A stretch of DNA of 20,000 bases, taken from the IMG/VR virus record IMGVR_UViG_3300031612_000006; one strand, given 5' to 3'. Made by a program: the position numbers and the translations under genes. Shown piece by piece: positions 1,127 to 19,580 of this stretch. The first letter of the stretch is position 1, and each line of letters opens with the position of its first letter. This DNA is from an uncultured virus (IMG/VR IMGVR_UViG_3300031612_000006). Lineage: Duplodnaviria; Heunggongvirae; Uroviricota; Caudoviricetes; Crassvirales. Under the pieces are notes generated by a model. That model searched no databases. It saw nothing but the letters and a program-made list of their open reading frames with translations, and was not told the DNA's origin.

Positions 1127-1128
1127 TG

Positions 1129-1710: not shown

Positions 1711-1721
1711 CTTGACGTTAT

Positions 1722-2778: not shown

Positions 2779-2790
2779 AGTCTTTTAATG

Positions 2791-2828
2791 AAAGAGGGGC
2801 GAGGCAGGCAGAACCTACGTCACCCCTC
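2791..2828 (-). terminator. Long GC-rich intergenic hairpin (weak terminator or processing stem)
   Basis: Minus-strand RNA GAGGGGUGA-C-GUAGGU-UCU-GCCUGC-C-UCGCCCCUC followed by only UUU. G-U pairs favour the minus strand. Confidence 0.55.
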
Positions 2829-2858
2829 AGTTGAGAAAGCAGGGAGCAAAAAGCATCT

Positions 2859-3476
2859 TTAACCTCGTCTATCCGTTATCTCCGCTTGGAGGATTTGGAA
2901 TCTTGGGTCTCCCAATGTAGCCAAGACTTTACGAGCAGCAATCTGACACACTTCTTCGTGTGTATGAAGGCTTAAATCTTCTATATTCGTTGTGTACTTT
3001 AAATACTTAACAATCAAATTCTTAGTTCCTTCCCATCCTCTAAAGAATAAATAACCCATCTGCTCGTAAGCTATAGGGTATTCTTCATTGACTAGGTTGA
3101 ACGGGTCGTTACTATAAGCTCCTAAATCTGACAACTGAATAATCTTAACAGAAGTATGAGGTTCTTCAGTGTAATGAATAGCAAGCAACTTAGAATAAGG
3201 GTAGTCAAACTGAGTGTCAGGAGTTTGCCAATCAAGACTACCAGCTGACTCCATATCAACCTGAGGACTCTTAGTACCAGCAATCAATTCAGACCTAACA
3301 AGCTTCTGTAGTTTATCTCTAGAATCTTGACTAGTCTCAAATGATAGATAATATTGTTGAGCAAACTCATCAACAGACATTTCAACAAACCCATCTATAT
3401 CAATATCTGATAAGTAGGCAGTATCCTCTCTGTCTATAATTAACCTTACTCTATTTCTAGCCTCTTCTATAGTCAT
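2859..3476 (-). CDS. Conserved crAss-like structural (head-tail ring) protein
   Basis: 205 aa with N-terminal MTIEE...IDREDTAYL..DID.F and C-terminal LSLHTHEEVCQIAARKVL. Supported by synteny. Confidence 0.65.
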   Translation of the reverse strand: MTIEEARNRVRLIIDREDTAYLSDIDIDGFVEMSVDEFAQQYYLSFETSQDSRDKLQKLVRSELIAGTKSPQVDMESAGSLDWQTPDTQFDYPYSKLLAIHYTEEPHTSVKIIQLSDLGAYSNDPFNLVNEEYPIAYEQMGYLFFRGWEGTKNLIVKYLKYTTNIEDLSLHTHEEVCQIAARKVLATLGDPRFQILQAEITDRRG

Positions 3477-3481
3477 TGTTG

Positions 3482-4156
3482 TTATTTTTTAGCAGCACCT
3501 TTAGACTTGGTTGGTTTAACTTCACCTCTGATTTCATGCTTCAATATAGCGTGAATATCTTTGTTAGCCTTCAACCAAACTAATACCTGTTCTTCGTTAG
3601 TACCAATAGCCTCTCTACCGTAGTAGAATGTATTGTTCTTAAATCCAATCTGACCGCCTTTCAATGCTTCAAGTATAAATACACGTAAATCCTTTTCAGG
3701 GTCAAACTGAGCACTCATAAATGATTCTGGATTCCTCTGAGCAACGCCAATAATCTTAGCTCTTAACACGTCAGTCTCCGCATTAAGGTTGTACCCTTTT
3801 AATCTAGCGAAATCTAATACATCTTTATCAGTCATCTTAGCGGCTTCAATAATAGCCCTTGCTGATTCTAAAGTATCTTTAGTATGCTTCTGTTCTTGAG
3901 CAGCTAAATCTGTTCTCTTCCATTCGCCTGTTAAGACAGATGGATTGTTTCTTAGGAACTCATCCATAATGACGTGACCCTCATTGTTCATATCTAAAAG
4001 AACAACAGGACTAGTCCATTTTAATTGAGCATTAGTTCCATTAATGTCTTTGTAAATCTGGTTTTTACCAGTTTTATCTTTGTAGTTAGAGAATGTATAA
4101 AACCCTAATCTTTTTGGTGAGTGAAATTCATATTTCACAAATGCATTTGCTTCCAT
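3482..4156 (-). CDS. Conserved crAss-like virion protein immediately downstream of the major capsid gene
   Basis: 224 aa with AQRNPESF and C-terminal IGTNEEQVLVWLKANKDI. Position matches the conserved gene after the MCP. Confidence 0.6.
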   Translation of the reverse strand: MEANAFVKYEFHSPKRLGFYTFSNYKDKTGKNQIYKDINGTNAQLKWTSPVVLLDMNNEGHVIMDEFLRNNPSVLTGEWKRTDLAAQEQKHTKDTLESARAIIEAAKMTDKDVLDFARLKGYNLNAETDVLRAKIIGVAQRNPESFMSAQFDPEKDLRVFILEALKGGQIGFKNNTFYYGREAIGTNEEQVLVWLKANKDIHAILKHEIRGEVKPTKSKGAAKK

Positions 4157-4181
4157 AATTTGCTTTGCTTGCTTTGTTAGT

Positions 4182-4210
4182 AAAAAAGCACACCCCCGAA
4201 GGGATGCGCT
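4182..4210 (-). terminator. Intrinsic terminator after major capsid gene
   Basis: Minus strand AGCGCAUCCC-UUCG-GGGGUGUGCU-UUUUU: 10-bp stem, C(UUCG)G tetraloop and U tract. Confidence 0.9.
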
Positions 4211-4225
4211 ATTTAATTATAATCG

Positions 4226-5725
4226 TTATACCGTTAAACCAGTTGGCTTAAGGATACCACAAGATAGTGGGTTACGAACGATGATACCAGATTGAGTCAA
4301 CCAGTGAACTTCAAACTTATCATCACCTGATGCCGCCATCATTGATTTAGAATCGTAAGGATTAATCATACCAGGAACGTATTTCTTAACGAAATTACGA
4401 TTGATACCTTCAGCTCCTTTAGTAATCAATTCAACATTTGCTACACCTTGTGTAGAACCCATGTCTAAGAATACCATTAAAGCAGATAATTTAAGCGAGT
4501 TAAATCCAGTACCAGTAATAGCCGCTGCAGAAGACGCAGTAGAAGTATAACCTGGAGCAGTTGCAATGTTCGGGTCATCAAATACTGGGCAGTGAGCTAC
4601 AGTAATTTTATTACCTAAAGCGAAGTAAGAGCTAAAGTTAGCACCCACTGAAACGTCTTGACCGAATTTATCAACTAAGATAGAAGAGTCAGAACCAGTA
4701 GAAACTAGTAAGTCTTTCATTGCTTTGTGGAATTGGATTTTCCCTTGAGTACCTGTAAATACAACATACTCATTACCTGTAGCGTTCTCAGCGTTTAGAG
4801 ATAATTGACCGATAAAGTCAAGAATAACATCTTCAGATAAATCGAAATCTCCAGCAGAACCAGTAGCTTCATTGTAAGTCAATACGTTAGCATCAGCAAT
4901 CTGAGCTAAGATACCATCACCAATAAGTGGAATTCCAGTAACAGGAGCTCCAGCACCAGAAACACCAGCACCTTCAGTATACTGAACGATAGATGTTCTA
5001 CCGAACCAACGCATAACTTCTAAGTCATACATGAATTGAGCTTCAGTTTGTTGTTCTTTAGTGAAGAACCATAGACGGTGTCCATTATGTTCTACCCAAG
5101 TAACGTCAGTTAAATCACGAGCATCAATCACTAATTTCTTACGAGAAATTGTTAACCAGTTCTTACGTGTTTCAGGATAAGAATATCCTTCACCAACATC
5201 AGCTCCGTCAGAACCTTCACCAAAAGCATTACCAATAACACCAACAATACCGCCACCAAGGACGTTAGCAGTAATAACCGATAGAGCTTTACAGGTTAAT
5301 ACAACTAAACTTGAACCTGAAACACCAGCAGATGTAACATGTGCTTGAGAACCGTCAGCTAAACGAATAATATCGTTAGCGTTAATCATACAAGGATTGG
5401 CTGTAGTATCGTCGATACTCAACTCAAAAGCTCCACCTACAGGTATTTTGTCTGTAGAGAATCCAGCCTCTTCCGAAATATCTAAATCAGCACCTTGTAA
5501 TTGTTGAGCTCTATAACGACCCATCATCTTCCATTCGAAAGAATTATCACCTAATACTTTTTCACCAGCACCGAAGCCTAGTTTTTCTAATAAGTAAGTA
5601 GTTGTATAACGAGGATACAATTCTACTACTTTCTTTGCAATCTCTGGGTATTTAAGCAAGTTTGCTACCAGGGAGTTGTCTTCTGTGTTATGTTCTGCGC
5701 TATATTTAGCACCATAAATCTTCAT
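4226..5725 (-). CDS. Major capsid protein (crAss-like)
   Basis: 499 aa, located after portal and scaffold and followed by a strong terminator. Motifs FEWKMMG, VFTGTQGKIQF, KITVAHCPVFDD and QSGIIVRNPLSCG. Confidence 0.85.
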   Translation of the reverse strand: MKIYGAKYSAEHNTEDNSLVANLLKYPEIAKKVVELYPRYTTTYLLEKLGFGAGEKVLGDNSFEWKMMGRYRAQQLQGADLDISEEAGFSTDKIPVGGAFELSIDDTTANPCMINANDIIRLADGSQAHVTSAGVSGSSLVVLTCKALSVITANVLGGGIVGVIGNAFGEGSDGADVGEGYSYPETRKNWLTISRKKLVIDARDLTDVTWVEHNGHRLWFFTKEQQTEAQFMYDLEVMRWFGRTSIVQYTEGAGVSGAGAPVTGIPLIGDGILAQIADANVLTYNEATGSAGDFDLSEDVILDFIGQLSLNAENATGNEYVVFTGTQGKIQFHKAMKDLLVSTGSDSSILVDKFGQDVSVGANFSSYFALGNKITVAHCPVFDDPNIATAPGYTSTASSAAAITGTGFNSLKLSALMVFLDMGSTQGVANVELITKGAEGINRNFVKKYVPGMINPYDSKSMMAASGDDKFEVHWLTQSGIIVRNPLSCGILKPTGLTV

Positions 5726-5765
5726 AATTTGTTTTTTTAGAAGTTATTAATAAATAGACTACAAC

Positions 5766-6803
5766 TTAATCAGATAAGAATTTGTTTGCACTAAATCCTT
5801 TAGCTGGAGTTTCATAATTATTAGATGAGCGATTACCTCTGTTAGGAGATGTTATGCCATCCAGAATTTTAGACTTCCCTTGTTCAACGCCTTGCGAACG
5901 AACCATCTTGAAAATCTTCTCTTTGTTTCGCCATAGAAAAGCAGCCTCCGCAACATTGGCATGAGACTCAAATATATCTTGGGCGAAATCACCTTTAGTT
6001 ATGTAACCGTAAAGTTGTTTCTTGTCTTTCTGTGATACCTTACCTCCGAAAAAGTCCTCTCTACCTTTGATGTAGCTTTGAAGTTCTTTTCTTGAATTAT
6101 CAGCATTCTCAGTCTTTAACTTATCGTTGTCAGCTTGCTCAGTTCTTAATCTATCCTTTTCAGAATGGATGTGCTTAGTAAGTTGACTCCTAACTAGTGT
6201 TGCTTCTCTCTTAAGAAGCCCTGCATCTTCTAGTCTATCTACAGTGTCATCTATCTCCTCTTTATCATACTTAGCTGCTCTCATATCAGCGATAACTAAA
6301 TCCTTATCAGATAGCTCTAAGTATGTATTAAGGTTATTAATAGTATCGTTATCAGCTACAGCTGGTTTGAAGGCTTCCTTCACTTTAGCTATAAAGTCTT
6401 CTTTACTAGATGCTTCTAGTCCAGCTTCCTTTCCTAGAGCTTCCCAGTTGAATTCAGCAGATTCATCTACCCCTTCAGCTTCTTCTTCTCTTGAATCATC
6501 CCAATCAGATTCTTCCTCTGCGGGCTCATTAGGCTCTTCAGTCTCTTCAGTCTCAGTTGCAGCCGCTGGCTCAACCTTTTCTTCAGTTTCTATTTCATCC
6601 CAAGAGAAGTCTCCTTCTTTTGATTCTTCAGCCGCTACTTCTGTAGCTTCGCTAGTACTTTCTGTTGCCGCTGCTTCCGTAGATTCTGTTGATTCTTCGG
6701 AAGCTCCAGCTTCACCTCCCAAGAAGGCAGACGCATCAAACGACTCCTCCTTAGCTTCCGTGTCCGAGATAATCTCTTCCACTAAATTACTTTCCTTTCC
6801 CAT
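5766..6803 (-). CDS. Acidic scaffold-like protein between portal and MCP
   Basis: 345 aa with a very Glu/Asp-rich disordered N-half and a helical C-half. Conserved position. Confidence 0.7.
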   Translation of the reverse strand: MGKESNLVEEIISDTEAKEESFDASAFLGGEAGASEESTESTEAAATESTSEATEVAAEESKEGDFSWDEIETEEKVEPAAATETEETEEPNEPAEEESDWDDSREEEAEGVDESAEFNWEALGKEAGLEASSKEDFIAKVKEAFKPAVADNDTINNLNTYLELSDKDLVIADMRAAKYDKEEIDDTVDRLEDAGLLKREATLVRSQLTKHIHSEKDRLRTEQADNDKLKTENADNSRKELQSYIKGREDFFGGKVSQKDKKQLYGYITKGDFAQDIFESHANVAEAAFLWRNKEKIFKMVRSQGVEQGKSKILDGITSPNRGNRSSNNYETPAKGFSANKFLSD

Positions 6804-6825
6804 TGTGCTTTGCTTTAAACTTTTA

Positions 6826-6833
6826 CAAATATA
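6826..6833 (-). promoter_or_regulatory. Bacteroidota sigma-A -7 element upstream of scaffold/MCP
   Basis: Minus strand TATATTTG matches TAnnTTTG, 22 nt before the ATG at 6803. No clear -33 TTG. Confidence 0.65.
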
Positions 6834-9089
6834 TTACTTTTTATCTTTATTTTTTTTGGACTCCATTTTCAAGGAGTGTTCGTTATCTACTTCTTTTTGT
6901 TGAGAGCCAAAGTCAGCCTTTATTTTCTCTAAGCTTAGTTTGTTTTTCTCTCTAGAGTCTTCAACATCTCTAGTGGCATCAGATGCTATCTCTTGAGACG
7001 CTACTCTAGCTTCAGCATTAATCTTAGCAACAGTAATGTTACCTTCGATTTCCATCTGCTTCATCTCCATTTGAGTCTGAGCCTTAGCTTGTTCAGCTTC
7101 TGCTTGAGCTTGTTGCATTTCAGCTTGCTGACTCTGAGCTTGAGCTTGTTGCTCTTGCATTGCTTCTAGTCCTTTCTCTAATACGTGCTGAGCTTCAGTC
7201 ATTGTATCTGATTTAAGAACCTTTAAAGCATCTAGTAAGCTAATAGAACCAGATTGTAATGCAGATTGAGACATTCCTTGAACTTGTTGTTTTAAAGAAT
7301 CATCTCTACCAGAGTCTCCTAAGAATATACCATAATCATTTAAGGCTACATCAGGAAGTATGTTAAGGAACTTGTATCCAGCATCACCAAATATGAATGC
7401 AGCACGCTTACCACCAGCCCAAGCTAGTTTCATTAAGTTAGCTAACCTCTCTAGTACTCTTTTCTTAACCTCATTATGGGAGAAGAACCAGCCTGCGGTT
7501 GATATAGATGACTGAGTAACAGAACGTTGCACGTTACCTACGTACTCATACTGCTCAACAGCACCTTCTCTCTGAGGAGACACTCCTGAGATTTGTCCTG
7601 CAGTCTGCTCTAACATCATCTTAAGATTTATAAGTTGCTGTATAGAATTAGACATAGTAAAATCAACTTGTTGGAATTGATTAAACGAAGCTGTATCCCC
7701 ACCCTCATCACGAGTGTTGATAGGTATAATACCATCATTTTTAAGGTGATACATAACTTCTTGCATGTCCATACCTAAGTTTGTAGGCATTTGAGACACA
7801 TCATATACTACAGCCTTACCACCAGCACGAGCCATAGTAAGTTCAATGTTGTACATAACAATATTATACAACATCTGTACGTGACGTAACGTATCAACTA
7901 GTGATGTTGGCTTACCTGTGGTGTGATTATAAACAACACCAACATAAGATAAGGAAGTAGAACCTGCATCATCAACAGAACGAACCTGATTAGGTCTTCT
8001 CCTGCAGTTAACCAGGACTTTTCCACCAATCTTAGTACCTTCCCATATATCATCAACGCATTTAGTTTCGATGTGGTCACCTTTTCTTTTTTTGTATCTA
8101 TCACCTACCAACTTTTGAAACGGTTGGTCTGGATTGTATTTATTTTCAGAGATTTTAAACTTAAGTGACTTAATAGACTTCCATTCAGCAGAGATTACTC
8201 TAATCTTAACACTTCTGTCGTCTTCTAGGTTCACCCAGTTGAACTTATCGTTCCATTTAGATATAGAATCAGGTGTAGCACCACGCATCTCTTCTAATTC
8301 ACGAACATCTTCTTCGCTTAACTCGTCTCTGTACTCGTCAATCACTTCATTTACCGCTAACCATCTCTCTTCACCCGCCCATTGAGCGTTATCCAAGAAA
8401 TCAGACTCTACAGACTTGTCATAAACAAAAGCTCTAGGGTCTACTCTACGAACATGTGGGTCACCGTCTTTAATGTACACCTTATAAAACTCTTTAGCCG
8501 TAACTAGTAAGTCTCTCATCCCTTCTTGGAATATCTTCTTCATTCCGTGTTTGTGAATGAGGTAGTCCAATCCGTCATGGATAGATTCTTCTATGATTTC
8601 CTTGTATTGGAACTTCATGAATAGGTCAATGTCGTCTGGTATAGGGAATTCTTTGTTGTCCATTTCTAACTCCATACCAAACTCATCCTCAACTTGAGAA
8701 TTAACTTCCTTAAGTAAGTCATTAGCAACTAAAGACACTTTAAACTGCTCCTTACGAAGGGCAGCCTCCATATTTACAGCATATACACTCTTATCTATAG
8801 GTCTGCTAAGGTCTTCGTTACAAAGAAGGTCAACCTTATTCCTAGTGATAGGATGGTTAGCCATTGTAGCTGGTGCAGTAGATTTATACTGGTCAGTAAC
8901 GTAGGCATAATCCTCTTCGTTAATCTCACCGTTGTATATTCTATAATTACTAGCGTCTCGTTCTGATTCACCAACAACGCCACTTACATCCCCTTTCTCT
9001 AGGGATTTAACAATAGCATCAATGTTTTTTTCGCACCAAGATTCGTCTTTTTCGTTGTCTGGTATGAATTGTTTAGGGAAGTTGCTCAT
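6834..9089 (-). CDS. Portal protein
   Basis: 751 aa directly after terminase. FPKQFIP..EKDESW N-terminus, RRVDPR, WEGTKIG, ISGVSPQREG, and a Gln/Ala-rich coiled C-terminus. Confidence 0.88.
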   Translation of the reverse strand: MSNFPKQFIPDNEKDESWCEKNIDAIVKSLEKGDVSGVVGESERDASNYRIYNGEINEEDYAYVTDQYKSTAPATMANHPITRNKVDLLCNEDLSRPIDKSVYAVNMEAALRKEQFKVSLVANDLLKEVNSQVEDEFGMELEMDNKEFPIPDDIDLFMKFQYKEIIEESIHDGLDYLIHKHGMKKIFQEGMRDLLVTAKEFYKVYIKDGDPHVRRVDPRAFVYDKSVESDFLDNAQWAGEERWLAVNEVIDEYRDELSEEDVRELEEMRGATPDSISKWNDKFNWVNLEDDRSVKIRVISAEWKSIKSLKFKISENKYNPDQPFQKLVGDRYKKRKGDHIETKCVDDIWEGTKIGGKVLVNCRRRPNQVRSVDDAGSTSLSYVGVVYNHTTGKPTSLVDTLRHVQMLYNIVMYNIELTMARAGGKAVVYDVSQMPTNLGMDMQEVMYHLKNDGIIPINTRDEGGDTASFNQFQQVDFTMSNSIQQLINLKMMLEQTAGQISGVSPQREGAVEQYEYVGNVQRSVTQSSISTAGWFFSHNEVKKRVLERLANLMKLAWAGGKRAAFIFGDAGYKFLNILPDVALNDYGIFLGDSGRDDSLKQQVQGMSQSALQSGSISLLDALKVLKSDTMTEAQHVLEKGLEAMQEQQAQAQSQQAEMQQAQAEAEQAKAQTQMEMKQMEIEGNITVAKINAEARVASQEIASDATRDVEDSREKNKLSLEKIKADFGSQQKEVDNEHSLKMESKKNKDKK

Positions 9090-9093
9090 CTTT

Positions 9094-10893
9094 TTAAGAT
9101 TTATATGGTACTAATCGTCCGTTTTCTCTTTTATAATATACAAAGCCTAAGCTTTTCTTTTCTACTGTCTCTGTTTTCACTTGTTTGTCGTGAAGGTCTA
9201 TATCATGTATAAGGCACAATCCAAAAGCAATCGCCCTATCCGTGTTCCTTAAACCGTAACCTGCTAGTTCGTCTAGTAAGTCAATAAACCATATGTTGTC
9301 GCATTCCTCTTCGATGTACTGTTCCATGAATTGCTCCATCACAGCCTTAGTATGTTTATTCATTTGAATACCATACTTATTCTTATTGACCGTCTTCGGA
9401 GAGTGGGCGGTAGCTGGACGCTCTTTCAAGTATCCTTTACCCCCTGCTCTTTGGAAATAACCTATGACTCCAATACGAGTATACTCTATCAACATTTTGG
9501 CGTTGTAATATACAGCTAATTTTAGACATCCATCCCAGAACTCTTCTGCCGTGTCTGGACGCTCTGTATATTCAGCCACAGGGTATCTGCTGGCGATGTC
9601 CATGTTAAAGAATCGTCTGAATATAATAGCACTACCTAAAGAATCCGTCGATGCTTGGTCTTGGTCATAACTATCAATACCTCCAATATCCAACCCTTTA
9701 AGGTCGGTCTTAGGGTGAGATAGAATCTTGTAAGGACCATATTGGTCTAATACAAATTCAACCTCCATTGAGTCACCAACCCATTCGAGTCGTCCTTTTT
9801 GTATTTGATTTCTAAGAGCATCATCGCTAAGTATCGCACTCCTCTGAGCGTTTATTTTAGATACATTAAACCTTGAGTTCTTAGTTTGTAAGAAGGCTTC
9901 TTCGACGGATAGCGGATAATTCTGAAGCTCTAGATTGTAACCCTTCTGGTTACCTGCGGCATACAGTTGCTCCCTTCTTTCCTTTAAAGCGGCTGTAGCA
10001 CCATCTACATCAGATACTCCCGTATCTTTGTCAAAGAAGCCATGATAACACATAGAAGCTGGAATAAATAGAGGAATAAGATTAAACGCCTCAGCATTAT
10101 AATACATCTCCATAAAATCCTTAGACGCAGCTTCAATATCTCCACCCGTTCCACCAATAATAGGTACACCATATTGGTCATCCCCATCCATGAAACAAGC
10201 TTTAGAAGACATATAAGCATTAAGGAGTTCCTTGAACTCACCAGCTTCTTCAAATACCATCACAGCAAGACGTTCACCCTTATAAACTTCAGGGTTACTC
10301 ATCGTTCGGCAGTGTATTACTGAATGAAATCCTCCAGTTCCCCACTTACCATCTTTAGCTTTTATTTTATACCCAGACTTTAGAACATCATCACCCTCTT
10401 TTAATATTGAGTGCCTGAAGTTACTACTCTGATTGTTTAATCCTGACTTAACCTTATCAAAGAAAGAGGTCGCTGTAACCTGTAAACCCGCAGCCACACC
10501 AACGTGGTTGTACGGATAAAAGGTGTACTCATGGGCTAGTATCCCTGAGTTCATATAACTAAAGCCTTTATCACGAGCTTTAATTACAATCATTCCTTTA
10601 CCTTCTTTCTTGCATCTATCGAACAAATCAAAATAGATTTTATCCATGTCTCTATACCAGGGTGCGATAAGAGTCTTCCTTGAATTCCCTTTCTCTCCTG
10701 TAGAACCTAATATTTTATAATAGTTAAGATAGTAATAGTGCTTACCAGTAATAGCGTCTAAACCCTTAGGTTTAAAGCCTTCCTTACATCTTCTAATCTC
10801 TTCGTCCCAGAACTCTTTAAACGCAATACTATCGGGGCTAACATCAGGCGCACCTATATGTACGATTGGAGCGTACTTTTCTATCTTAGACAT
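9094..10893 (-). CDS. terL: Terminase large subunit
   Basis: 599 aa. Walker A IVIKARDKGFSY, Walker B VMVFEEAG, coupling motif GGTGG, nuclease GGIDSYD and C-terminal DRAIAFGLCL. Confidence 0.93.
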   Translation of the reverse strand: MSKIEKYAPIVHIGAPDVSPDSIAFKEFWDEEIRRCKEGFKPKGLDAITGKHYYYLNYYKILGSTGEKGNSRKTLIAPWYRDMDKIYFDLFDRCKKEGKGMIVIKARDKGFSYMNSGILAHEYTFYPYNHVGVAAGLQVTATSFFDKVKSGLNNQSSNFRHSILKEGDDVLKSGYKIKAKDGKWGTGGFHSVIHCRTMSNPEVYKGERLAVMVFEEAGEFKELLNAYMSSKACFMDGDDQYGVPIIGGTGGDIEAASKDFMEMYYNAEAFNLIPLFIPASMCYHGFFDKDTGVSDVDGATAALKERREQLYAAGNQKGYNLELQNYPLSVEEAFLQTKNSRFNVSKINAQRSAILSDDALRNQIQKGRLEWVGDSMEVEFVLDQYGPYKILSHPKTDLKGLDIGGIDSYDQDQASTDSLGSAIIFRRFFNMDIASRYPVAEYTERPDTAEEFWDGCLKLAVYYNAKMLIEYTRIGVIGYFQRAGGKGYLKERPATAHSPKTVNKNKYGIQMNKHTKAVMEQFMEQYIEEECDNIWFIDLLDELAGYGLRNTDRAIAFGLCLIHDIDLHDKQVKTETVEKKSLGFVYYKRENGRLVPYKS

Positions 10894-11413
10894 TACTTTG
10901 CGCTTGAAGTGTTTCTAAGTAACTCAATTCTCTACTACCAGCAATAGTCTTCTTCTCTCCTCTACGTTCAATAGCATCGAGTAACTTCTGTCTAGTGGCT
11001 AAAATCTTCTCCACGCCAATCATCACCTTCTGGATGTCGGCAGCGTTTTCTATGTTTATCTTAGTGGCGTTTAATAAAGAGGTATATTCATCAATCTTCT
11101 CGTTAAAAGCAGATAGTTGAGCTTCTAATGGGTCGAACTGAAGTTCATTGTACTTGATAATAGCAGACTCAATTTTTTTATTTTTAGTCTTATTCCACTC
11201 ATAGTCTCCGTAAAGGTCTTTACCTACAACTTTCCCACGCTCTTCTTTTGTATAGTGTCTATAAGGGGAATCATAATCCGCCATGTACGCAACAAACATA
11301 AGTGCTTTAAGTCCTAATTTCTTAACGGCAACTAGTTCTGCAAATTCGGGTATACCGTAAATGCCGTCGTCATTAATCAATTCTCCTTGCTTACTTACTT
11401 TAAGTAGATACAT
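10886..11413 (-). CDS. Conserved protein upstream of TerL (putative terminase small subunit)
   Basis: 175 aa, overlaps the terL start. FVAYMADYDSPY motif and helical C-terminus. TerS function is inferred from position only. Confidence 0.55.
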   Translation of the reverse strand: MYLLKVSKQGELINDDGIYGIPEFAELVAVKKLGLKALMFVAYMADYDSPYRHYTKEERGKVVGKDLYGDYEWNKTKNKKIESAIIKYNELQFDPLEAQLSAFNEKIDEYTSLLNATKINIENAADIQKVMIGVEKILATRQKLLDAIERRGEKKTIAGSRELSYLETLQAQSNV

Positions 11414-11696
11414 GCTTTGTGAGTGTGGTTTTCATTACTAATATTCCATGGCTAATGTACGGCATCTGCTCGTATTCTTTGTCTCCATCTTCGTTCACGT
11501 ACACAAAGTCCATTGAAGATACATTACCTCCAGCGAGCTTGTATTCATTACTTATAGGAGTAAAGCCAAGGTCTATGTATTCAGTCATATTATCCAGCTC
11601 ACGGTCTTCACTCATCTGTTTAACAACAGACATACCTAATATTGTACCATCAGGCATTTCTTCAATCCAACCAAACTTAGTTTTTTGCTTTTTCAT
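11400..11696 (-). CDS. Hypothetical protein
   Basis: 98 aa, ATG start, preceded by a consensus promoter and overlapping the next gene. Confidence 0.65.
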   Translation of the reverse strand: MKKQKTKFGWIEEMPDGTILGMSVVKQMSEDRELDNMTEYIDLGFTPISNEYKLAGGNVSSMDFVYVNEDGDKEYEQMPYISHGILVMKTTLTKHVST

Positions 11697-11710
11697 ATAC
11701 CCTTCGTTGT

Positions 11711-11740
11711 CAAAGATAGTTATTTTTTCAACAGGTACAA
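11711..11740 (-). promoter_or_regulatory. Bacteroidota sigma-A promoter for the packaging operon
   Basis: Minus strand TTG (11740-11738), 19-nt spacer, TATCTTTG (11718-11711): canonical -33/-7 layout. Confidence 0.8.
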
Positions 11741-11747
11741 TTTAAGT

Positions 11748-11775
11748 AAAAAAAAAGAGAGTCATAACAACTCTC
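11748..11775 (-). terminator. Intrinsic terminator
   Basis: Minus strand GAGAGU-UGUUAUG-ACUCUC followed by U9, just after the stop at 11798. Confidence 0.8.
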
Positions 11776-11797
11776 CTTAGATAATTAAATACTAAAA

Positions 11798-12151
11798 CTA
11801 TTCTTTCTGTTCTTCGAAATCATTCTTAGTACGTAACGTTTTAACTGCACTCTTAAATGATTTACCAATACTCCTAGCTCCTTTAGATTTACTAACCTTA
11901 GACGCTCTAGATTTAGAGGCAACCCTGTTGTTTGAGTTCCTTACCTTTAACCTCTTTGAAGGCTTTTTAGGTTCACCATCCTTCGGCTTCGGTGTAGGTT
12001 TGGGTGTAGGTTTGGGCTTTGGCGTAGGCTTTGGCTTTGGTTTCGGTGTAGGTTTCGGTTTCGGCTTTGGTGTAGGTTTTTTCATAGGTGGTTTCTTTTT
12101 GGCTGGCGCTGCCTTACTGGCAGGAGCTTTAGATTTAGTTCCTTTTGACAT
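11798..12151 (-). CDS. Lys/Pro-rich basic low-complexity protein
   Basis: 117 aa with (KPTPKP/KP)n repeats. The ATG is 1 nt after the upstream stop and a terminator follows. Confidence 0.7.
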   Translation of the reverse strand: MSKGTKSKAPASKAAPAKKKPPMKKPTPKPKPKPTPKPKPKPTPKPKPTPKPTPKPKDGEPKKPSKRLKVRNSNNRVASKSRASKVSKSKGARSIGKSFKSAVKTLRTKNDFEEQKE

Positions 12152-12152
12152 C

Positions 12153-12317
12153 TTAGTCGTGTTGAATTATTCCACCACCCTTGAAGATAATCTCTCCATT
12201 AGCGTCTAGTTTATCCTTAGGACCAGAGTTCTGAATCTTATCTATCTTCTTTCGGTTTCTCTTACTCTTACGTTTATCCAAAGCCTTAGCTAGGAAATTC
12301 TTTTTCTTGTCGGGCAT
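12153..12317 (-). CDS. Small basic protein (54 aa) ending FKGGGIIQHD
   Basis: Manual translation MPDKKKNFLAKALDKRKSKRNRKKIDKIQNSGPKDKLDANGEIIFKGGGIIQHD. Fills the gap between its neighbours and shares its C-terminus with the upstream ORF. Confidence 0.75.
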   Translation of the reverse strand: MPDKKKNFLAKALDKRKSKRNRKKIDKIQNSGPKDKLDANGEIIFKGGGIIQHD

Positions 12318-12328
12318 AGTATATTTAT

Positions 12329-12787
12329 TTAGTCGTGTTGAATGAATCCACCTTTAGAGTATCCTAAGGCACTTTTAGCTTTCTCGAACATAGAAGGAGG
12401 GGTTTTATTAACAGAACCACTACCAGCACTACCGCTTCTTACGGGGTCTTGAGTTCTATTAACTACCTTATCCATTATAGCCTTACTAGACGCAGATGTA
12501 GTGGGCTTACCCTTCTTAATCCTACGCTTAACTGTATTGCTTGCTCTTTGAGATGGAGTGGTCTTAGTAACCTTATTAAGTACTTTATTTTTAACAGACT
12601 TAACCTTGTCTTTAATCTTCTTTTTTATGCTACCACCATCCTTAAATGAACTTCTAGTTACTGGAGTTCTCTTTGATGGTTCTTCAACTGGACCTCTTCT
12701 GCTATTTATTATAGCTAGCTTTTGTGCTTCAGTATACTTAGGAACCGCTTTAGGCTTACGTTTTAACTTTCTTGTGTCTTTAGGCAT
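12329..12787 (-). CDS. Basic Lys/Arg-rich protein ending YSKGGFIQHD
   Basis: 152 aa, first gene after the promoter at 12816-12823. Confidence 0.75.
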   Translation of the reverse strand: MPKDTRKLKRKPKAVPKYTEAQKLAIINSRRGPVEEPSKRTPVTRSSFKDGGSIKKKIKDKVKSVKNKVLNKVTKTTPSQRASNTVKRRIKKGKPTTSASSKAIMDKVVNRTQDPVRSGSAGSGSVNKTPPSMFEKAKSALGYSKGGFIQHD

Positions 12788-12815
12788 AATACTCTTAGTT
12801 TTAAATTAATAAAAC

Positions 12816-12823
12816 CAAAGATA
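12816..12823 (-). promoter_or_regulatory. Bacteroidota sigma-A -7 element
   Basis: Minus strand TATCTTTG, 28 nt upstream of the ATG at 12787, in an AT-rich context. Confidence 0.65.
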
Positions 12824-13212
12824 ACCTAAAATAATATTATTTATTTTCATAAAAAATTATATAGGTATGTTTTTACGGATGTCTTACCCTAACTACCCCG
12901 TACCTCATAGAAAACTTTGATGCCCCCCTCAATATTTCTAAAGGAACTGAACAAGTTCAGGTATTAAAGCTCTTATATTCCCCATTTACTCCTATATTAT
13001 ACCTAATAGGAACTAACTTACGTCGAGTTTAATAGAAATGTGGGTGTAAGGGTGTGGAGGTGTTCCACTACATAGGTAACAACCTTATTAATCCACTATG
13101 TGCTCATAAAGAAGAGCAAGGAAGGTTGCGTAATAGATGTGAGTAAGCTTGTAACCTCTTACTCTCACTAGGATAACAGCCATACTAATTAGGTTTAAGG
13201 GTTATGCTTAAC

Positions 13213-13242
13213 GCCTTCGGCTTATCCTCTTATCTCTTAGGT
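13213..13242 (+). promoter_or_regulatory. Conserved 30-bp motif copy 1 (variant; candidate phage RNAP promoter)
   Basis: GCCTTCGGCT-TA-TCCTCT-TATCTCT-TAGGT. The repeat is seen directly; the function is inferred. Confidence 0.5.
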
Positions 13243-13305
13243 ATTAATCATCTGTTTCATTTAGATGTTTAGTATCACTCGGTAGGGTCTTATCCACTAT
13301 CCCAC

Positions 13306-13336
13306 CAAAGGTACAATAAATAAATAACAATGTCAA
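13306..13336 (-). promoter_or_regulatory. Bacteroidota sigma-A promoter facing leftwards
   Basis: Minus strand TTG (13336-13334), 20-nt spacer, TACCTTTG (13313-13306). Confidence 0.6.
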
Positions 13337-13404
13337 GTCTTAGCTATGCTAATTCTCTCGATGTTCTTATTCATTTAGATGTTGAGTGGTGTTGGAGTGG
13401 ATAT

Positions 13405-13434
13405 GCCTTCGGCTTGTCCTCTTTGTTCTTTGCT
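13405..13434 (+). promoter_or_regulatory. Conserved 30-bp motif copy 2
   Basis: GCCTTCGGCT-TG-TCCTCT-TTGTTCT-TTGCT. Confidence 0.6.
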
Positions 13435-13444
13435 TTATTCATTA

Positions 13445-13685
13445 AAGTATATTTCGCGTCTATACAAAGCGTTTGCTTAACAGCAAACAAAGGTTGAGGG
13501 CGTGAAAAGACACGCGTAAATTCGGGTGTGAGTGGGAGTGAAAGCCCACACATTATTATGCTTAAACTAATCCATTCTCTTTGGTAAGCTCTGTTGCAAC
13601 AGAGAGCAGATATATCGTCTAAAGATATAGTAAGAGTTTTCGATTAGCTATTAGTAGGCCACACGATGTAAGTCCTACTAATATT
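13445..13685 (+). ncRNA. Putative structured non-coding RNA A
   Basis: No plus-strand ORF in the track. Serial hairpins at 13471-13488, 13500-13515, about 13526-13552, 13589-13604 and 13649-13683. Confidence 0.4.
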
Positions 13686-13741
13686 AAGCTTCACTATCAC
13701 TTATAGTACAACACTTCGTGTTGACTTATATTACCATATAT

Positions 13742-13771
13742 GCCTTCGGCTTCTCCTCTCCTTTATTTGCT
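13742..13771 (+). promoter_or_regulatory. Conserved 30-bp motif copy 3
   Basis: GCCTTCGGCT-TC-TCCTCT-CCTTTAT-TTGCT, ending 23 nt before the ATG at 13795. Confidence 0.65.
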
Positions 13772-13794
13772 ATTATTAATTAAACCCTTTAATT

Positions 13795-13983
13795 ATGAAA
13801 AATACTACCGTTGAGATAGTACTAAGTAATCTTAGTCTAAAAGAACTTCGTTCTTTACACGCTAAATTAATGATTGAAAAGGATACTTCTATTGATAAAA
13901 TAGAGTTGAAAGAGCTTATTATGCTCGTAGACCAATATATGTTCGATGCTTATATCGAAACCGTTGAACTACACCAAGGATAA
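13795..13983 (+). CDS. Small hypothetical (putative early) protein
   Basis: 62 aa, ATG with AT-rich leader, follows motif copy 3, hairpin after the stop. Confidence 0.65.
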   Translation: MKNTTVEIVLSNLSLKELRSLHAKLMIEKDTSIDKIELKELIMLVDQYMFDAYIETVELHQG

Positions 13984-13988
13984 TTAAA

Positions 13989-14254
13989 AGCAACAGGTAA
14001 CTCTGTTGCTCTTAATTTTCACCATCATTACCGTGTACTACGTACACCAAGGCTCTCAGTCCTTGCTAACAACTCTGAGTAGAGGCTTGATGTCCTTGAT
14101 TTATCAATCCATCACCCAGAGCTCCTAAACAAGAGCAACCATAAAAACTGTTTAGACCTACACATAATGTCGTTAAACTTGTTGTAATTAAACGCTTGTA
14201 GTAGTAACCTTAGGCAGTATAGCCGACGCGTCTACTACAAGTGTTTCTTTTATT
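13989..14254 (+). ncRNA. Putative structured non-coding RNA B with pseudoknot
   Basis: Hairpins at 13989-14010, 14033-14047 and 14048-14089, an H-type pseudoknot at 14121-14155, and a 15-bp stem 14190-14204/14232-14246. Confidence 0.5.
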
Positions 14255-14286
14255 ACTAACATTCATTAACTAAATACCTTAAGCGT

Positions 14287-14562
14287 ATGAACAATCTTAA
14301 ATCAGTCGAGACTAAAAGTCTCTCGTTATTGTCTAGCATTGCTAACGACAATAGAATGGCGTACCCTGTTGCTGTAAAAGTAACAGAATTAGGTGGAGAA
14401 AATAGAGTGGAGATAGTCCACGCCCACAACAAAAAGGAAATGCTAGATGTTATAGATGAAATAGCTCAAGCTATCCTAGAATCTGAATACGAATTAGATT
14501 TGAAAATCAGTCGCATCAACCGTTTATCGGCTAACAAATACGCAAGTATTTACTTAAATTAA
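14287..14562 (+). CDS. Hypothetical protein
   Basis: 91 aa, ATG start, AT-rich leader. Confidence 0.7.
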   Translation: MNNLKSVETKSLSLLSSIANDNRMAYPVAVKVTELGGENRVEIVHAHNKKEMLDVIDEIAQAILESEYELDLKISRINRLSANKYASIYLN

Positions 14563-14566
14563 GCTT

Positions 14567-14734
14567 ATGATTAATCTAATCGGAATGCTCGTGCTTATGT
14601 GTGCCTCAATAGGCATTATAGGAATCTTCACTGCTATCAGTGAGTGGAGAAGAGAAAGATTAAAAGTTAGAACTCCCTTAACGGGAACAATAGAAGAGTG
14701 TGAAAACCTAACTAGAGACCGAGAGTGCACCTAG
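14567..14734 (+). CDS. Small single-pass membrane protein (55 aa)
   Basis: Manual translation MINLIGMLVLMCASIGIIGIFTAISEWRRERLKVRTPLTGTIEECENLTRDRECT. Starts 4 nt after the upstream stop. Confidence 0.6.
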   Translation: MINLIGMLVLMCASIGIIGIFTAISEWRRERLKVRTPLTGTIEECENLTRDRECT

Positions 14735-14739
14735 TGTGT

Positions 14740-14770
14740 GCCTTCGGCTATCTCCTCTCTTCTCTTTGCT
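14740..14770 (+). promoter_or_regulatory. Conserved motif copy 4 (31 bp)
   Basis: GCCTTCGGCT-ATC-TCCTCT-CTTCTCT-TTGCT. Confidence 0.6.
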
Positions 14771-14876
14771 TAGAGATAATCTCTTTGCGTTTTAATCTTC
14801 ACTATCATTGCTACAGACAGCATAGTGAATATACTCCTTAAATCCTTAGGAGCGAAAAAAAGGAACCCCTTGCCTT

Positions 14877-15494
14877 ATGTTAGATTTCACTCTACCTACA
14901 GGACTTGCATTAGCTACACAAAAATCAGAACTTCGTTTAAGCTCTGCACACGCTAGTATTGATGCAAAAATTACTTCATTCACCGATGGAGTAGCCCAAA
15001 AGCGAGTTGATGGCGTCTTCAAAGACTTCACTCAAGCACGCTTAACGCTTGTATTCGGCTCTTTAGAATCGGATAATAATACTTATCGCTTTAATCTGCG
15101 TTTTCCAAACAAAACGATTAAAGACATTGCAACGGAGATTTACCTCTTCGACAATGTGCGTGCAAACCCGCCTAAGGCTTCTACCGTTCTCGGTAAGAAA
15201 ATCCTTGAGATGACGGATAAGGACGGCGTGATTCTTTACAGCTCAATAAACGAGTTCGTGGAGAAATTCAAATTATCAGGTAGTACTTCTAAGCTATACT
15301 CAGCTTTGCGTGAGAACAAAATCTCTTGGGATTTATCAAAGTTTGCTGAATCTATCACAGATACAACACTCTCAGTTCAGACTTACTACAACGATAAAAT
15401 GAAGGACTACACGATTTGCACAGTGGACTACAATCCCCGCAAATCTGCGTCCCAAACAACAAAGACTACAACCCGTGGTGGTAGCCTTTGGTAG
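14877..15494 (+). CDS. Hypothetical protein, monocistronic unit
   Basis: 205 aa, flanked by motif copy 4 upstream and a terminator-like hairpin downstream. Confidence 0.8.
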   Translation: MLDFTLPTGLALATQKSELRLSSAHASIDAKITSFTDGVAQKRVDGVFKDFTQARLTLVFGSLESDNNTYRFNLRFPNKTIKDIATEIYLFDNVRANPPKASTVLGKKILEMTDKDGVILYSSINEFVEKFKLSGSTSKLYSALRENKISWDLSKFAESITDTTLSVQTYYNDKMKDYTICTVDYNPRKSASQTTKTTTRGGSLW

Positions 15495-15500
15495 AAATAT

Positions 15501-15535
15501 TAGGAGTGCTCTTAGGAGTGCTCCTATTATTCTTT
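15501..15535 (+). terminator. Terminator-like hairpin
   Basis: UAGGAGUGCUC-UUAG-GAGUGCUCCUA (11 bp with tandem U-G/G-U pairs) followed by UUAUUCUUU. Confidence 0.7.
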
Positions 15536-15542
15536 AATTAGA

Positions 15543-15629
15543 ATACTATTACTAAATACCTTAATACTATTACTGCATACCTTGATACTATTACTAGATG
15601 CACCCTTGATACCTTGATACTATTTCTAG
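15543..15629. repeat. Degenerate 21-bp tandem repeat (ATACTATTACTnnATACCTTr)
   Basis: Units start at 15543, 15564, 15585 and 15617, with a partial ATACCTTG at 15609. Confidence 0.85.
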
Positions 15630-15743
15630 GTACAGGCTTGTTCGTGCCTCACAAGTAAGCTAACATGTGTTCACTATCACATGAACAGTAGTATGAACGG
15701 TACTTTATCAACCAATTTGAAAACAAGACTTCGTCTTTGGTTA

Positions 15744-15773
15744 GCCTTCGGCTTCTCCTCTGTTTTCCTTGCT
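15744..15773 (+). promoter_or_regulatory. Conserved 30-bp motif copy 5
   Basis: GCCTTCGGCT-TC-TCCTCT-GTTTTCC-TTGCT. Confidence 0.65.
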
Positions 15774-15819
15774 CATATAATTCCTTTCTTATTTATAAAG
15801 GTGTTGAGTGTTAAGATAT

Positions 15820-16160
15820 TAGGCATGGGTGACGCTGTTAAACCCAAATAATGAGAGCTACAGAGTGCGAGCCTGCAAAACCAAACCTCTCAGCCTATCC
15901 CTTAAAGTTAAAACATCTATGATTGCCCTCACCTGTAAAGGTTAGTAGCAGACTGCAGTTAGCAAAAGAAGCTGTAGATGGAGTTCTTGACGAAGAACAT
16001 AACTTTTAATATTGCAAGCCCTATTTCATGGATAGGCTTAGGTTCTCTGCACCTAAAACCCCAAGCATCTTAGAAAGCTATCGCTGAGAACGCAAAAGGA
16101 TAGCACTATTAAGATGCTCTATGAGAGTTATAAAGAAGTCAGTATCTCTGACTCATCTTA
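15820..16160 (+). ncRNA. Putative large structured non-coding RNA/leader C
   Basis: No ORF in the track. Nested helices: 15852-57/15887-92, 15892-900/16030-38, 15904-10/16000-06, 15914-19/15975-80, 15983-98, 16064-73/16109-18, 16077-82/16099-104 and 16137-53. Confidence 0.55.
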
Positions 16161-16165
16161 AATAT

Positions 16166-16208
16166 GAAACAGATGGTCTATAGAGAGGTTCGATTCCTCT
16201 CTGTTTCA
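16166..16208 (+). ncRNA. tRNA-like mini element (acceptor stem + T-arm, no anticodon arm)
   Basis: GAAACAG-ATGGTCTATAG-AGAGG-TTCGATT-CCTCT-CTGTTTC-A. Confidence 0.65.
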
Positions 16209-16231
16209 CTAACCAAACTAAATAGAAAGCT

Positions 16232-16411
16232 ATGGCTGGATTAGTAAATGCTCGTAAAGAGCGCAAAGAAGTGCTTAGAGAAGAAGCACAAGAAAGACAA
16301 GAGTATTACAATAACATTGTAAGCACTGAAGCAGGTATCCTACGTGTCATGGAAACTTGTGGAGCTAAGCAAAAAGCTAAGCTTCAAAAGAAACTACTTA
16401 AATTGAAGTAA
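16232..16411 (+). CDS. Small basic helical protein (59 aa)
   Basis: Manual translation MAGLVNARKERKEVLREEAQERQEYYNNIVSTEAGILRVMETCGAKQKAKLQKKLLKLK. The stop is 1 nt before the next ATG. Confidence 0.75.
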   Translation: MAGLVNARKERKEVLREEAQERQEYYNNIVSTEAGILRVMETCGAKQKAKLQKKLLKLK

Positions 16412-18617: not shown

Positions 18618-19580
18618 ATGTGCGGAATAGTAGCATACTCTGGTAAGAGTTTAAATATATCAAAAGTAATGTACCTATTAGATGAAAATGATTCTAGAGG
18701 TGGACATTCATCAGGATTGTACGTTGAGAACAACGAAGACAAGAAAATGTACAAGACACTGGAAACTTCAGGTAAACTGAATAGATTGATTGATGTTTCT
18801 GAAGTACAATTAGCGATTGGGCATACACGATATGCAACTCATGGTTTAAAGACTGCTGAGAACACACACCCTTACATGATAGGCTCTTACGTAGGCTGTC
18901 ATAATGGTGTGTTATCCAATTACAAGGACACTTCAGAGAAGTACGGTTTTACTCCCCCAGATGTAGATAGTAAAGCTATCTACGAGGCGTTAGTATCCAC
19001 CAATGATTACCAAACACTTGGTGAGCATGGTGGTACTATTAACGCTGTATGGACAGAGAATGACGGTAACCTGTATGTATACAGAAGAAACAACCCATTG
19101 TTTAGCCTAAGAACTGACGAGGGTATACTATTCTCTTCAATTAAGGCAGGTCTAACAGACCTAATGTCTGAAGGAGAGGAAGTATTAGAGGTTGAACCTA
19201 ATGTTATACATGTGTATGAGCAAGGTGTATTGATTAACAGCATTGATGTTAGCGTTACATTCATAGAGAAGAAAGGTACTGTAGTAAAGAACTGGACTGA
19301 CTATAAAGCGAAAGACACACAAGATGTGTGGAACACGTGGGATGCTGGAGCTGACTATGAAACTGCCAAGTATAATGCAGCGTATGTCTCTAAAGAAGAG
19401 AAAGCTGATTATTATATAGGACAGAGTACAGAGGAGATTCAGTGTCAAGCACTGCAAGATTTAATGTACAACGGAATCATAGACGAGACTCAAGAGACTG
19501 CTTTAGAGAAGTTGCTTGATGAGTTATATGATAAATCATACTTAGGTGCTCACACTAAAACAGAGAACATATATGAATAA
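18618..19580 (+). CDS. Class II (Ntn) glutamine amidotransferase, stand-alone
   Basis: N-terminal MCGI (catalytic Cys), plus RGGHSSG, IGHTRYATHG, NTHPY, HNGVLSN and VDS motifs. Confidence 0.92.
   Translation: MCGIVAYSGKSLNISKVMYLLDENDSRGGHSSGLYVENNEDKKMYKTLETSGKLNRLIDVSEVQLAIGHTRYATHGLKTAENTHPYMIGSYVGCHNGVLSNYKDTSEKYGFTPPDVDSKAIYEALVSTNDYQTLGEHGGTINAVWTENDGNLYVYRRNNPLFSLRTDEGILFSSIKAGLTDLMSEGEEVLEVEPNVIHVYEQGVLINSIDVSVTFIEKKGTVVKNWTDYKAKDTQDVWNTWDAGADYETAKYNAAYVSKEEKADYYIGQSTEEIQCQALQDLMYNGIIDETQETALEKLLDELYDKSYLGAHTKTENIYE

Follow-up and report, generated by a model that had tools for sequence, protein, structure and literature searches.

A marine crAss-like phage: repeated motifs with a lineage-specific mini-hairpin as candidate phage-specific early promoters of the rightward module

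How might the first genes of a crAss-like phage be switched on? These phages are among the most abundant viruses known, and the promoters of their unusual injected RNA polymerase (RNAP) are undefined. The question is raised by a 20,000-nucleotide stretch of DNA from an uncultured virus (IMG/VR record IMGVR_UViG_3300031612_000006), hereafter the window, in which a 30-base motif is repeated five times in one orientation between positions 13213 and 15773. We tentatively propose, with a probability of about 0.45, that the five motifs are phage-specific early promoter cassettes bearing a lineage-specific mini-hairpin and having a role in crossover as well. The promoter function, the identity of the reading enzyme and the formation of the hairpin are what we infer from sequence comparisons.

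The pattern GCCTTCGGC has exactly five matches in the 20 kb, at 13213, 13405, 13742, 14740 and 15744, all of them on the plus strand and within 13213-15773. When one mismatch was allowed, eight matches were obtained against a mean of 1.12 in shuffled sequences, and eight were reached in 0/200 shuffles. The sequence-only reading had reported five co-oriented 30-base motifs, and these results clearly show that they exist and are non-random. Each copy comprises, in this order, a 9-nt palindrome (the hairpin), a linker of 2-3 nt, TCCTCT, a spacer of 7 nt and TTGCT (TAGGT in copy 1). When the copies are aligned, the conserved blocks are the palindrome, a T plus 2-3 nt, TCCTCT, and the 7 pyrimidine-rich nt together with TTGCT; conservation begins exactly at the hairpin and fades past TTGCT, and the flanks upstream of the palindrome are unrelated. 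The spacing between hairpin and core varies by 1 nt, while that within the core is rigid: the spacer is 7 nt in every copy, with pyrimidines at 6-7 of its seven positions, just as the earlier claim of an invariant pyrimidine-rich spacer had it. The hairpin followed by CCTCT matches four times in the window versus 0.22 expected (four were reached in 0/200 shuffles), copy 4 being missed because its linker is 3 nt, not 2; in viral contigs this pattern was found in 105 stretches, with one match each among the 80 listed. TCCTCT-N7-TTGCT matches exactly at copies 2-5 only, copy 1 having two mismatches (TAGGT), and there are zero cases in the window of a core without the palindrome.

The window belongs to a marine crAss-like phage, and marine metagenome runs contain its DNA. 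The minus strand (2-12787) carries the genes of the muzzle protein, ring proteins 1 and 2, the major capsid protein, the portal and the large terminase, as assigned by Pfam (crAss_MUZ, CrAss_Ring_1, CrAss_Ring_2, Crass_capsid) and PHROGs (portal, terminase). From about 13200 the gene direction switches to the plus strand, and all five motif copies fall within the first 2.6 kb of this plus-strand module, the next 4 kb of genes being motif-free. In relatives the plus-strand module is replicative, with a DnaB-like helicase (DnaB_C 9e-85), AAA_24, GATase and amidoligase. The motifs had been placed outside supported genes; copies 2 and 5 do sit in mechanically called open reading frames (ORFs) at 13330-13497 (55 aa) and 15681-15851 (56 aa), and these ORFs have no relative in 200 related loci. 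All 202 of the 202 records matching the window terminase are crAss-like phages, with Flavobacterium, Bacteroides, Cellulophaga and Tenacibaculum as the hosts on such records. The best listed GenBank phage relatives of this terminase are 27-29% identical, none exceeding 60%, and a megablast of 12800-16400 against GenBank phages gave zero matches. Relatives are numerous in IMG/VR, with terminase identities of 62-93% and genomes of about 57-71 kb; G001 (9.5 kb), one of the sequences compared, is identical to 2308-11789 and does not contain the motif.

The exact motif is not conserved, its palindrome being found in only 2 of 81 related loci as a single copy each, and every relative lineage has its own co-oriented repeat at the same place. 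Loci L126 and L180 bear CCTG(C/T)TA-TTCTTCTCT followed by an AT-rich box (TAATTAAC and similar) in 5-6 copies; L111, L113, L114 and L116 bear TAATCCTTCC in three copies; and L137, L140 and L127 have further versions. The closest relative, L108 (93% terminase identity), carries three copies of GGCTTCGCC, 3 nt, TTCTCT, 7 nt, and TAGGT or TTGCA, and its homologue of copy 1 likewise ends in TAGGT; the L108-type pattern was found in at least 118 stretches, with one match each among the 80 listed. All instances lie on the gene strand: 5/5 in the window, 3/3 in L108, 13/13 for the type B version and 9/9 for type C (non-redundant). In the 57-kb relative G003, the motif of that lineage (at most one mismatch) occurs three times, all in 45584-46344 at the module head, and the rest of that genome has none. 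Scans of relatives had been expected to give copies only upstream of early genes and on one strand; the strand in the relatives compared and the position in G003 are as expected. AT-rich words dominated the output of de novo word searches in the complete relatives. The distance from the motif end to the ATG of a small ORF is 26-27 nt in 7/13 type B and 29 nt in 3/9 type C instances, so that the motif lies 26-29 nt upstream of a start codon in 10 of 22 relatives' instances; the others precede conserved non-coding stretches.

Since there is one version per genome and an own version per lineage, a phage-supplied reader co-evolving with the motif appears likeliest. In the scheme we propose, this reader would be a single factor, with an injected two-barrel RNAP as the prime candidate. 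The promoter would consist of the core TCCTCT, 7 pyrimidine-rich nt, TTGCT and an AT-rich stretch, with the GC mini-hairpin 2-3 nt upstream of the core. The motifs would start the first short units of the module, namely two structured non-coding RNAs, ORF62, the ORF205 unit and a long unit running into the replicative genes.

The mini-hairpin deserves separate consideration. In all five copies the template strand reads GCC-GAA-GGC, as had been claimed, with a C-GAA-G triloop; the stem is 3 bp in four copies and 4 bp in copy 5. In L108 the template strand reads GGC-GAA-GCC in 3/3 copies: relative to the window, every copy has the two bases of the middle stem pair exchanged, and the core differs at fixed positions. 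Taken over the window and L108, 24 of 24 cells of the stem alignment are paired, with a middle pair C:G in five copies and G:C in three, a result matched by 11/500 shuffles. Among about 200 related loci, repeated GC-rich 3-bp stems with 3-nt loops are confined to the window and L108, besides the unrelated GC-rich L369, and a scan open to every stem variant of copy 1 matched the L108 contig alone. Lineages at 81-84% identity of the large terminase subunit (TerL) lack the hairpin and keep the pyrimidine core and AT-rich box, which makes it a lineage-specific add-on, not a conserved key. By sequence, then, the hairpin is a feature of one sub-lineage that appears to have been grafted on a wider class of motifs with a pyrimidine core and an AT-rich box. 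C-TTC-G triloop hairpins in general are abundant on the plus strand (12 versus a shuffle mean of 1.0, with a maximum of 4 in 300), and 9 of the 12 are in 13213-15743. They include longer ones with C-G closing pairs just upstream of two copies: a 6-bp stem at 13709-13723, 19 nt upstream of copy 3 and terminator-like in look, and a 5-bp stem at 15725-15737, 6 nt upstream of copy 5. Such hairpins are also found within coding sequence, at 13840-13856 in ORF62 (7-bp stem) and at 14929 in ORF205.

The obvious precedent is phage N4. Its early promoters P1-P3 have a 5-7 bp stem within a GC-rich heptamer and are read by an injected virion RNAP; in the loop, -10G and -12A form a sheared pair with the centre at -11. 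Supercoiling and a single-stranded DNA-binding protein are needed, and compensatory changes preserve the stem where bases that are not contacted vary (PMC4496689). Just as in N4, where the phage packages its own polymerase, several co-oriented copies stand here at the head of the early genes (PMC4496689), and each has an inverted repeat whose 3-nt template loop, G-purine-A, is closed by C-G. As far as that account goes, three differences stand out: a stem of 3 bp versus 5-7 bp; a T7-like single-subunit enzyme in N4 versus a two-barrel DxDGD motif in the window's relatives; and a rigid pyrimidine-rich core after the hairpin here, which is the part held in common with the hairpin-less lineages. 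We therefore weighed a strict N4-style mode, in which the extruded template GCC-GAA-GGC hairpin would be the key for the injected polymerase and transcription would start at a fixed distance from the loop. The C-GAA-G loop is of the same type as that of N4, and the stem was kept by a matched swap in L108; however, the stem is short (4 bp at most, in copy 5), the hairpin is missing at 81-84% TerL identity with the rest of the motif kept, and it is the hairpin-core spacing that varies whereas the core spacing never does. Furthermore, a start 11 nt from the loop centre would land in a pyrimidine run, and the enzyme is of another class; gp66 of phage phi14:2 also transcribed M13 single-stranded DNA, and so displayed no evident specificity. 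We consider this mode quite unlikely. Of the central claim of the sequence-only reading, early promoters read by a phage enzyme through hairpin and sequence recognition, the co-orientation, the position at the module head, the unlikeness to host signals and the matched stem swap speak for it; the 3-bp stem and the absence of the hairpin in sister lineages speak against the hairpin as the means of recognition.

Could the motifs instead be promoters of the host RNAP, directed to them by an alternative sigma factor or by a phage-injected specificity factor? The box after the core is AT-rich and often TATAAT (copy 5 has CATATAAT; also types B and D in relatives), and the host enzyme does transcribe the middle and late genes of crAss-like phages, from tripartite promoters with -35-like and -10-like blocks plus a third block (phi14:2 study, 10.1101/2020.03.07.982082). 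The motif copies have no -35/-10 pair and lack all three of these blocks, including the -10-like TAnnTTTG, whereas a canonical conserved element with all of them lies nearby on the opposite strand. This leftward element (13294-13336, minus strand: TTGACA, 17 nt, TACCTTTG, GTGGGATAGTGG) fits the textual description of the phi14:2 middle/late promoters, while the five motifs do not fit, being opposite in direction and lineage-variable. The element is conserved in at least 120 IMG/VR viral contigs and is situated 40-60 nt upstream of a conserved leftward gene in most of them; judged by its sequence, it is probably a host-RNAP promoter of the middle/late type reported for crAss-like phages. The leftward host signal is thus frozen clade-wide while the rightward motif drifts, and a host-read signal should have stayed conserved, but the motif changes between close lineages. 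Sigma-70-type sites are not enriched (12 versus 10.5 expected), and 0/12 fall on a motif copy. The 22-base motif gave no match in the genome contigs of 185,579 species, and in metagenome contigs its one match was in an unrelated 1.3-kb contig. These data make reading by the host enzyme improbable, more so than the strict N4-style mode.

As regards the host box itself, TAnnTTTG had been said to mark the leftward structural genes and to be missing from the motifs. On the plus strand of 13000-16400 it occurs only at 14495, within an ORF, and it does stand 36 nt upstream of the leftward ATG at 12787 and 30 nt upstream of that at 6803; over the whole window, with 14 instances per strand versus about 11 expected, it shows no overall enrichment, and the claim holds in part. 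In this clade the leftward promoter points into the rightward units, antisense to motif copy 1. The relative G005, which has 113-nt terminal repeats, is without the exact leftward element.

If the reader is supplied by the phage, what is it? In the relatives G002, G003 and G005 the structural module encodes a giant protein of 3917-4424 aa with a conserved G(A/S)DLDGD(M/A)LH motif in a putative barrel (genes at 22048-34236, plus strand; 10726-24000, minus; and 20877-32630, minus, respectively). A three-sequence profile of the DLDGD region matched the tape-measure-fused virion RNAP of Thermus phage P23-45 with E 1.2e-4 and a phage beta' subunit with E 0.03. A 601-residue structural model has a predicted local distance difference test score of 37.5 overall and 56-79 in the barrel, and only residues 203-315 gave a match to the double-psi beta-barrel (DPBB) fold. 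The modelled DPBB aligned with P23-45 gp96 at Z 10.0 (96 residues, root-mean-square deviation 3.0, 23% identity) and with the large subunits of cellular RNAPs at Z 9.6-9.9. The whole giant protein, scanned for G002 only, gave no polymerase match in Pfam, PHROGs or PDB sequences. An E3-binding (peripheral subunit-binding) domain was noted at residues 807-842 of the G002 protein, which has otherwise no Pfam or PHROG family. The DLDGD motif together with the profile and fold matches makes a virion RNAP in the relatives plausible, and such an RNAP-type enzyme may read the motif. A virion RNAP had been expected elsewhere in the genome; a putative two-barrel RNAP was found in the relatives, and for the window itself the genome beyond the 20 kb is where its counterpart would lie.

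Two studied systems bear on this candidate. In phi14:2 the whole replicative module forms the early class, is transcribed rightward and is resistant to rifampicin, which the authors ascribe to the injected gp66, an enzyme that works well on single-stranded or denatured DNA but poorly on double-stranded templates (10.1101/2020.03.07.982082). Our literature search found no paper after the phi14:2 study that defines promoters of the crAss-like injected RNAP. P23-45 gp96, the tape-measure-fused virion RNAP, uses AT-rich pre-early promoters whose starts were mapped by cappable-seq and chromatin immunoprecipitation, as given in the available part of the report (10.1101/2022.12.01.518664). Here too there would be a conserved promoter motif for a two-barrel virion RNAP, and gp96 is the best solved-structure match to the polymerase-like barrel of the relatives; unlike our motif, that of P23-45 is AT-rich, a hairpin is not mentioned in the portion available, the phage family and host are unrelated, and the signal described here is known from sequence alone.

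The individual copies differ in what follows them. Copy 1 (13213-13242: GCC-TTC-GGC, TCCTCT, 7 nt, TAGGT) lies antisense in the leader of the leftward promoter. Copy 2 (13405-13434) heads a 256-nt non-coding stretch, and copy 5 (15744-15773) heads one of 459 nt (15774-16232) that ends in a tRNA-like minihelix. Both stretches, 13435-13690 and 15774-16232, are more strongly folded than shuffled sequence (z -3.1 each); the second has very high depth in metagenome contigs, and its part 15816-16127 is 93% identical to a relative's copy, which there directly follows the leftward promoter. They recall the two long non-coding RNAs with high early expression reported near the module head of phi14:2 in the part of that study available (10.1101/2020.03.07.982082). 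Copy 3 (13742-13771) ends with its TTGCT 23 nt upstream of the ATG of ORF62 (13795-13983), the distance from TCCTCT to this ATG at 13795 being 35 nt; ORF62, for which no relatives were found, is followed by a terminator-like hairpin at 13989-14010. Copy 4 (14740-14770), with the 3-nt linker, is followed by a small hairpin (AGAGAT-A-ATCTCT with a T-rich tail), then by a TTCACTATCA box, and 118 nt past TCCTCT by ORF205 (14877-15494), a conserved early-module protein with relatives in 21 of 200 related loci (up to 49% identity) and a terminator-like hairpin at 15501-15526 behind it. A related-locus search with the 152-aa and 205-aa proteins as queries gave no matches. The earlier statement that copies 2-5 each head an ORF or a structured segment is correct for the folded stretches after copies 2 and 5; as to start codons, only copy 3 is near one. 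Terminator-like hairpins are enriched in the region (10 versus 2.5 +/- 1.7 in shuffles); besides those closing ORF62 and ORF205, another precedes copy 3 by 19 nt.

The TTCACTATCA box brings in a further alternative. It stands at 13690-13699 (52 nt upstream of copy 3), 14798-14807 (58 nt past the start of copy 4 and 70 nt upstream of the ORF205 ATG) and 15670-15679 (74 nt upstream of copy 5), all on the plus strand. Often extended by ATGCGCGGTAG, it is conserved clade-wide in the rightward module, as in L113, L133, L152, L161, L163, G002 and G003, with 55 non-redundant instances, 24 of them in stretches without an open frame; it often comes right after a hairpin and T-run and 9-200 nt upstream of the pyrimidine motif, in L108 9 nt upstream of copy d3. 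In bacterial genome contigs the box with its extension gave two chance-like matches in GC-rich metagenome-assembled genomes, dissimilar to those of the relatives. Judged by this pattern, the box could represent another class of promoter, or else the units may in truth start there; in the latter case the five motifs would mark boundaries at the RNA level in longer early transcripts that start elsewhere, for instance at TTCACTATCA: signals for processing, pausing or 3'-end formation, or pyrimidine-rich translation leaders. The fixed 26-29 nt to an ATG would suit a leader element as well, and a small hairpin with a U/C-rich tract resembles a boundary signal. On the other hand, half of the instances, and 4/5 in the window, have no ORF at that distance, sequence conservation sets in exactly at the hairpin and declines past TTGCT, and an RNA stem of 3 bp that lacks a U-run makes a poor terminator. 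Moreover, lineage versions common to all copies favour a phage protein as the reader over host RNases or ribosomes. RNA-level boundaries are in our view unlikely, though less so than either the strict N4-style mode or the host enzyme.

The same copies are associated with the gain and loss of small cassettes. L128 and L126 are 99.8% identical as far as the first motif copy, after which L128 resumes from the second; L128 is therefore without a 313-nt unit (one motif and ORF81), with a junction that falls within the motif. The same 313-nt unit of L126 is missing from L180. In metagenome contigs of four runs the window region is mosaic, with a joint from 13315 to 15816 in 4/4 runs at high depth and one from 13637 to 13991 in two runs, and in G002 the order of the modules homologous to 14144-14255 and 15816-16127 is not that of the window. 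Being repeated and co-oriented, the copies may also be crossover points for small-cassette gain and loss. The alternative that had been offered to the promoter reading, recombination sites bounding exchangeable cassettes, finds direct support in relatives through the 313-nt indel and is compatible with a promoter role.

That the motifs are primarily recombination or operator sites, serving cassette exchange or the binding of a regulator without promoter activity, is another matter. The indel junction inside the motif, the mosaic structure and the changed module order would agree with it; the joints in the window's own strain population, however, are off the motif copies, and recombination needs neither strict co-orientation nor a fixed distance to an ATG nor restriction to the module head. 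In addition, the promoter early stem-loop (PeSL) cassettes of T4-type phages provide a precedent, in the part of the source available, for the coexistence of both roles (PMC2839356). We regard purely recombinational or operator sites as the least probable of the explanations considered. Like the motifs, PeSLs are small repeated regulatory cassettes among small non-essential ORFs of a hyperplastic region (PMC2839356), and recombination between their copies leads to gain and loss of cassettes, here seen as the 313-nt indel, the mosaic in 4/4 runs and the order in G002. Within what the source offers, the PeSL has a strong sigma-70-like promoter while our motif copies are without host-type boxes (PMC2839356); and as compared with the terminating stem-loop of the PeSL, the stem of the motif itself, placed upstream of the core, has 3 bp and no T-run, and separate terminator-like hairpins flank the units.

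Returning to phage-specific early promoter cassettes as the preferred explanation, several points weigh against it. The 24 sequencing runs with phage DNA are all DNA, none being recorded as RNA, and neither a transcription start nor a transcript is on record for the phage or a close relative. The motif is pyrimidine-rich on the RNA-like strand, so that an internal start would be a pyrimidine. Only one of the five copies is near a start codon, a terminator-like hairpin lies immediately 3' of copy 4, and the conserved TTCACTATCA box could be the real promoter. The hairpin is weak, at -1.5 to -2.5 kcal/mol by nearest-neighbour DNA energies, and the template-strand folds (z -0.3 to -1.9) are not significant; to our knowledge, nearest-neighbour models give no bonus for GNA loops. 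The stem covariation amounts to one event between two genomes, and the sister lineages are without the hairpin. A DPBB match is common to non-polymerase barrels (Z 10.3), and the window's own polymerase copy is outside the 20 kb. Finally, the early transcripts of phi14:2 are without a common upstream motif, in the part of the study available (10.1101/2020.03.07.982082).

What makes the candidate worth pursuing is that a short, repeated, lineage-specific signal with a matched-change hairpin offers a concrete template for in vitro tests of start choice. On the proposed reading, early-gene turnover in crAss-like phages would run through candidate promoter-bearing cassettes, as it does in T4-type phages. 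A bolder version, which at present we hold to be quite improbable, would make this the first definable promoter class of a crAss-type two-barrel virion RNAP, with a rigid pyrimidine-rich core and a recruited template-strand C-GAA-G mini-hairpin; an enzyme unrelated to that of N4 would in that case have arrived, by convergence, at hairpin-assisted initiation on DNA that is transiently single-stranded, and the same cassettes would drive the shuffling of early genes.

Some further features of the rightward module were observed. The tRNA-like top half at 16165-16215, 16 nt upstream of the start of ORF59, has a 6-bp acceptor-like stem, a 7-bp T-stem and the loop TTCGATT, followed by C-TAACCA. ARAGORN found no tRNA there, and Rfam gave only a weak cyano_tmRNA match (E 0.04). 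The element is kept in L378/L121, L372/L184 and L332, where the stems differ and still pair. Between the ORF205 terminator and the third TTCACTATCA box, 15540-15640 holds a unit of 21-32 nt (ATACCTTGATACTATTACTA...) that is present in three imperfect copies in tandem, and some metagenome contigs jump from 15501 to 15670, skipping this stretch. Further downstream, 18618-19580 (plus strand) in the replicative module is a gene for a class-II glutamine amidotransferase; in the relative G003 a gene for an amidoligase_2 protein comes after the glutamine amidotransferase gene, and the pair may serve the modification of nucleotides or protein.

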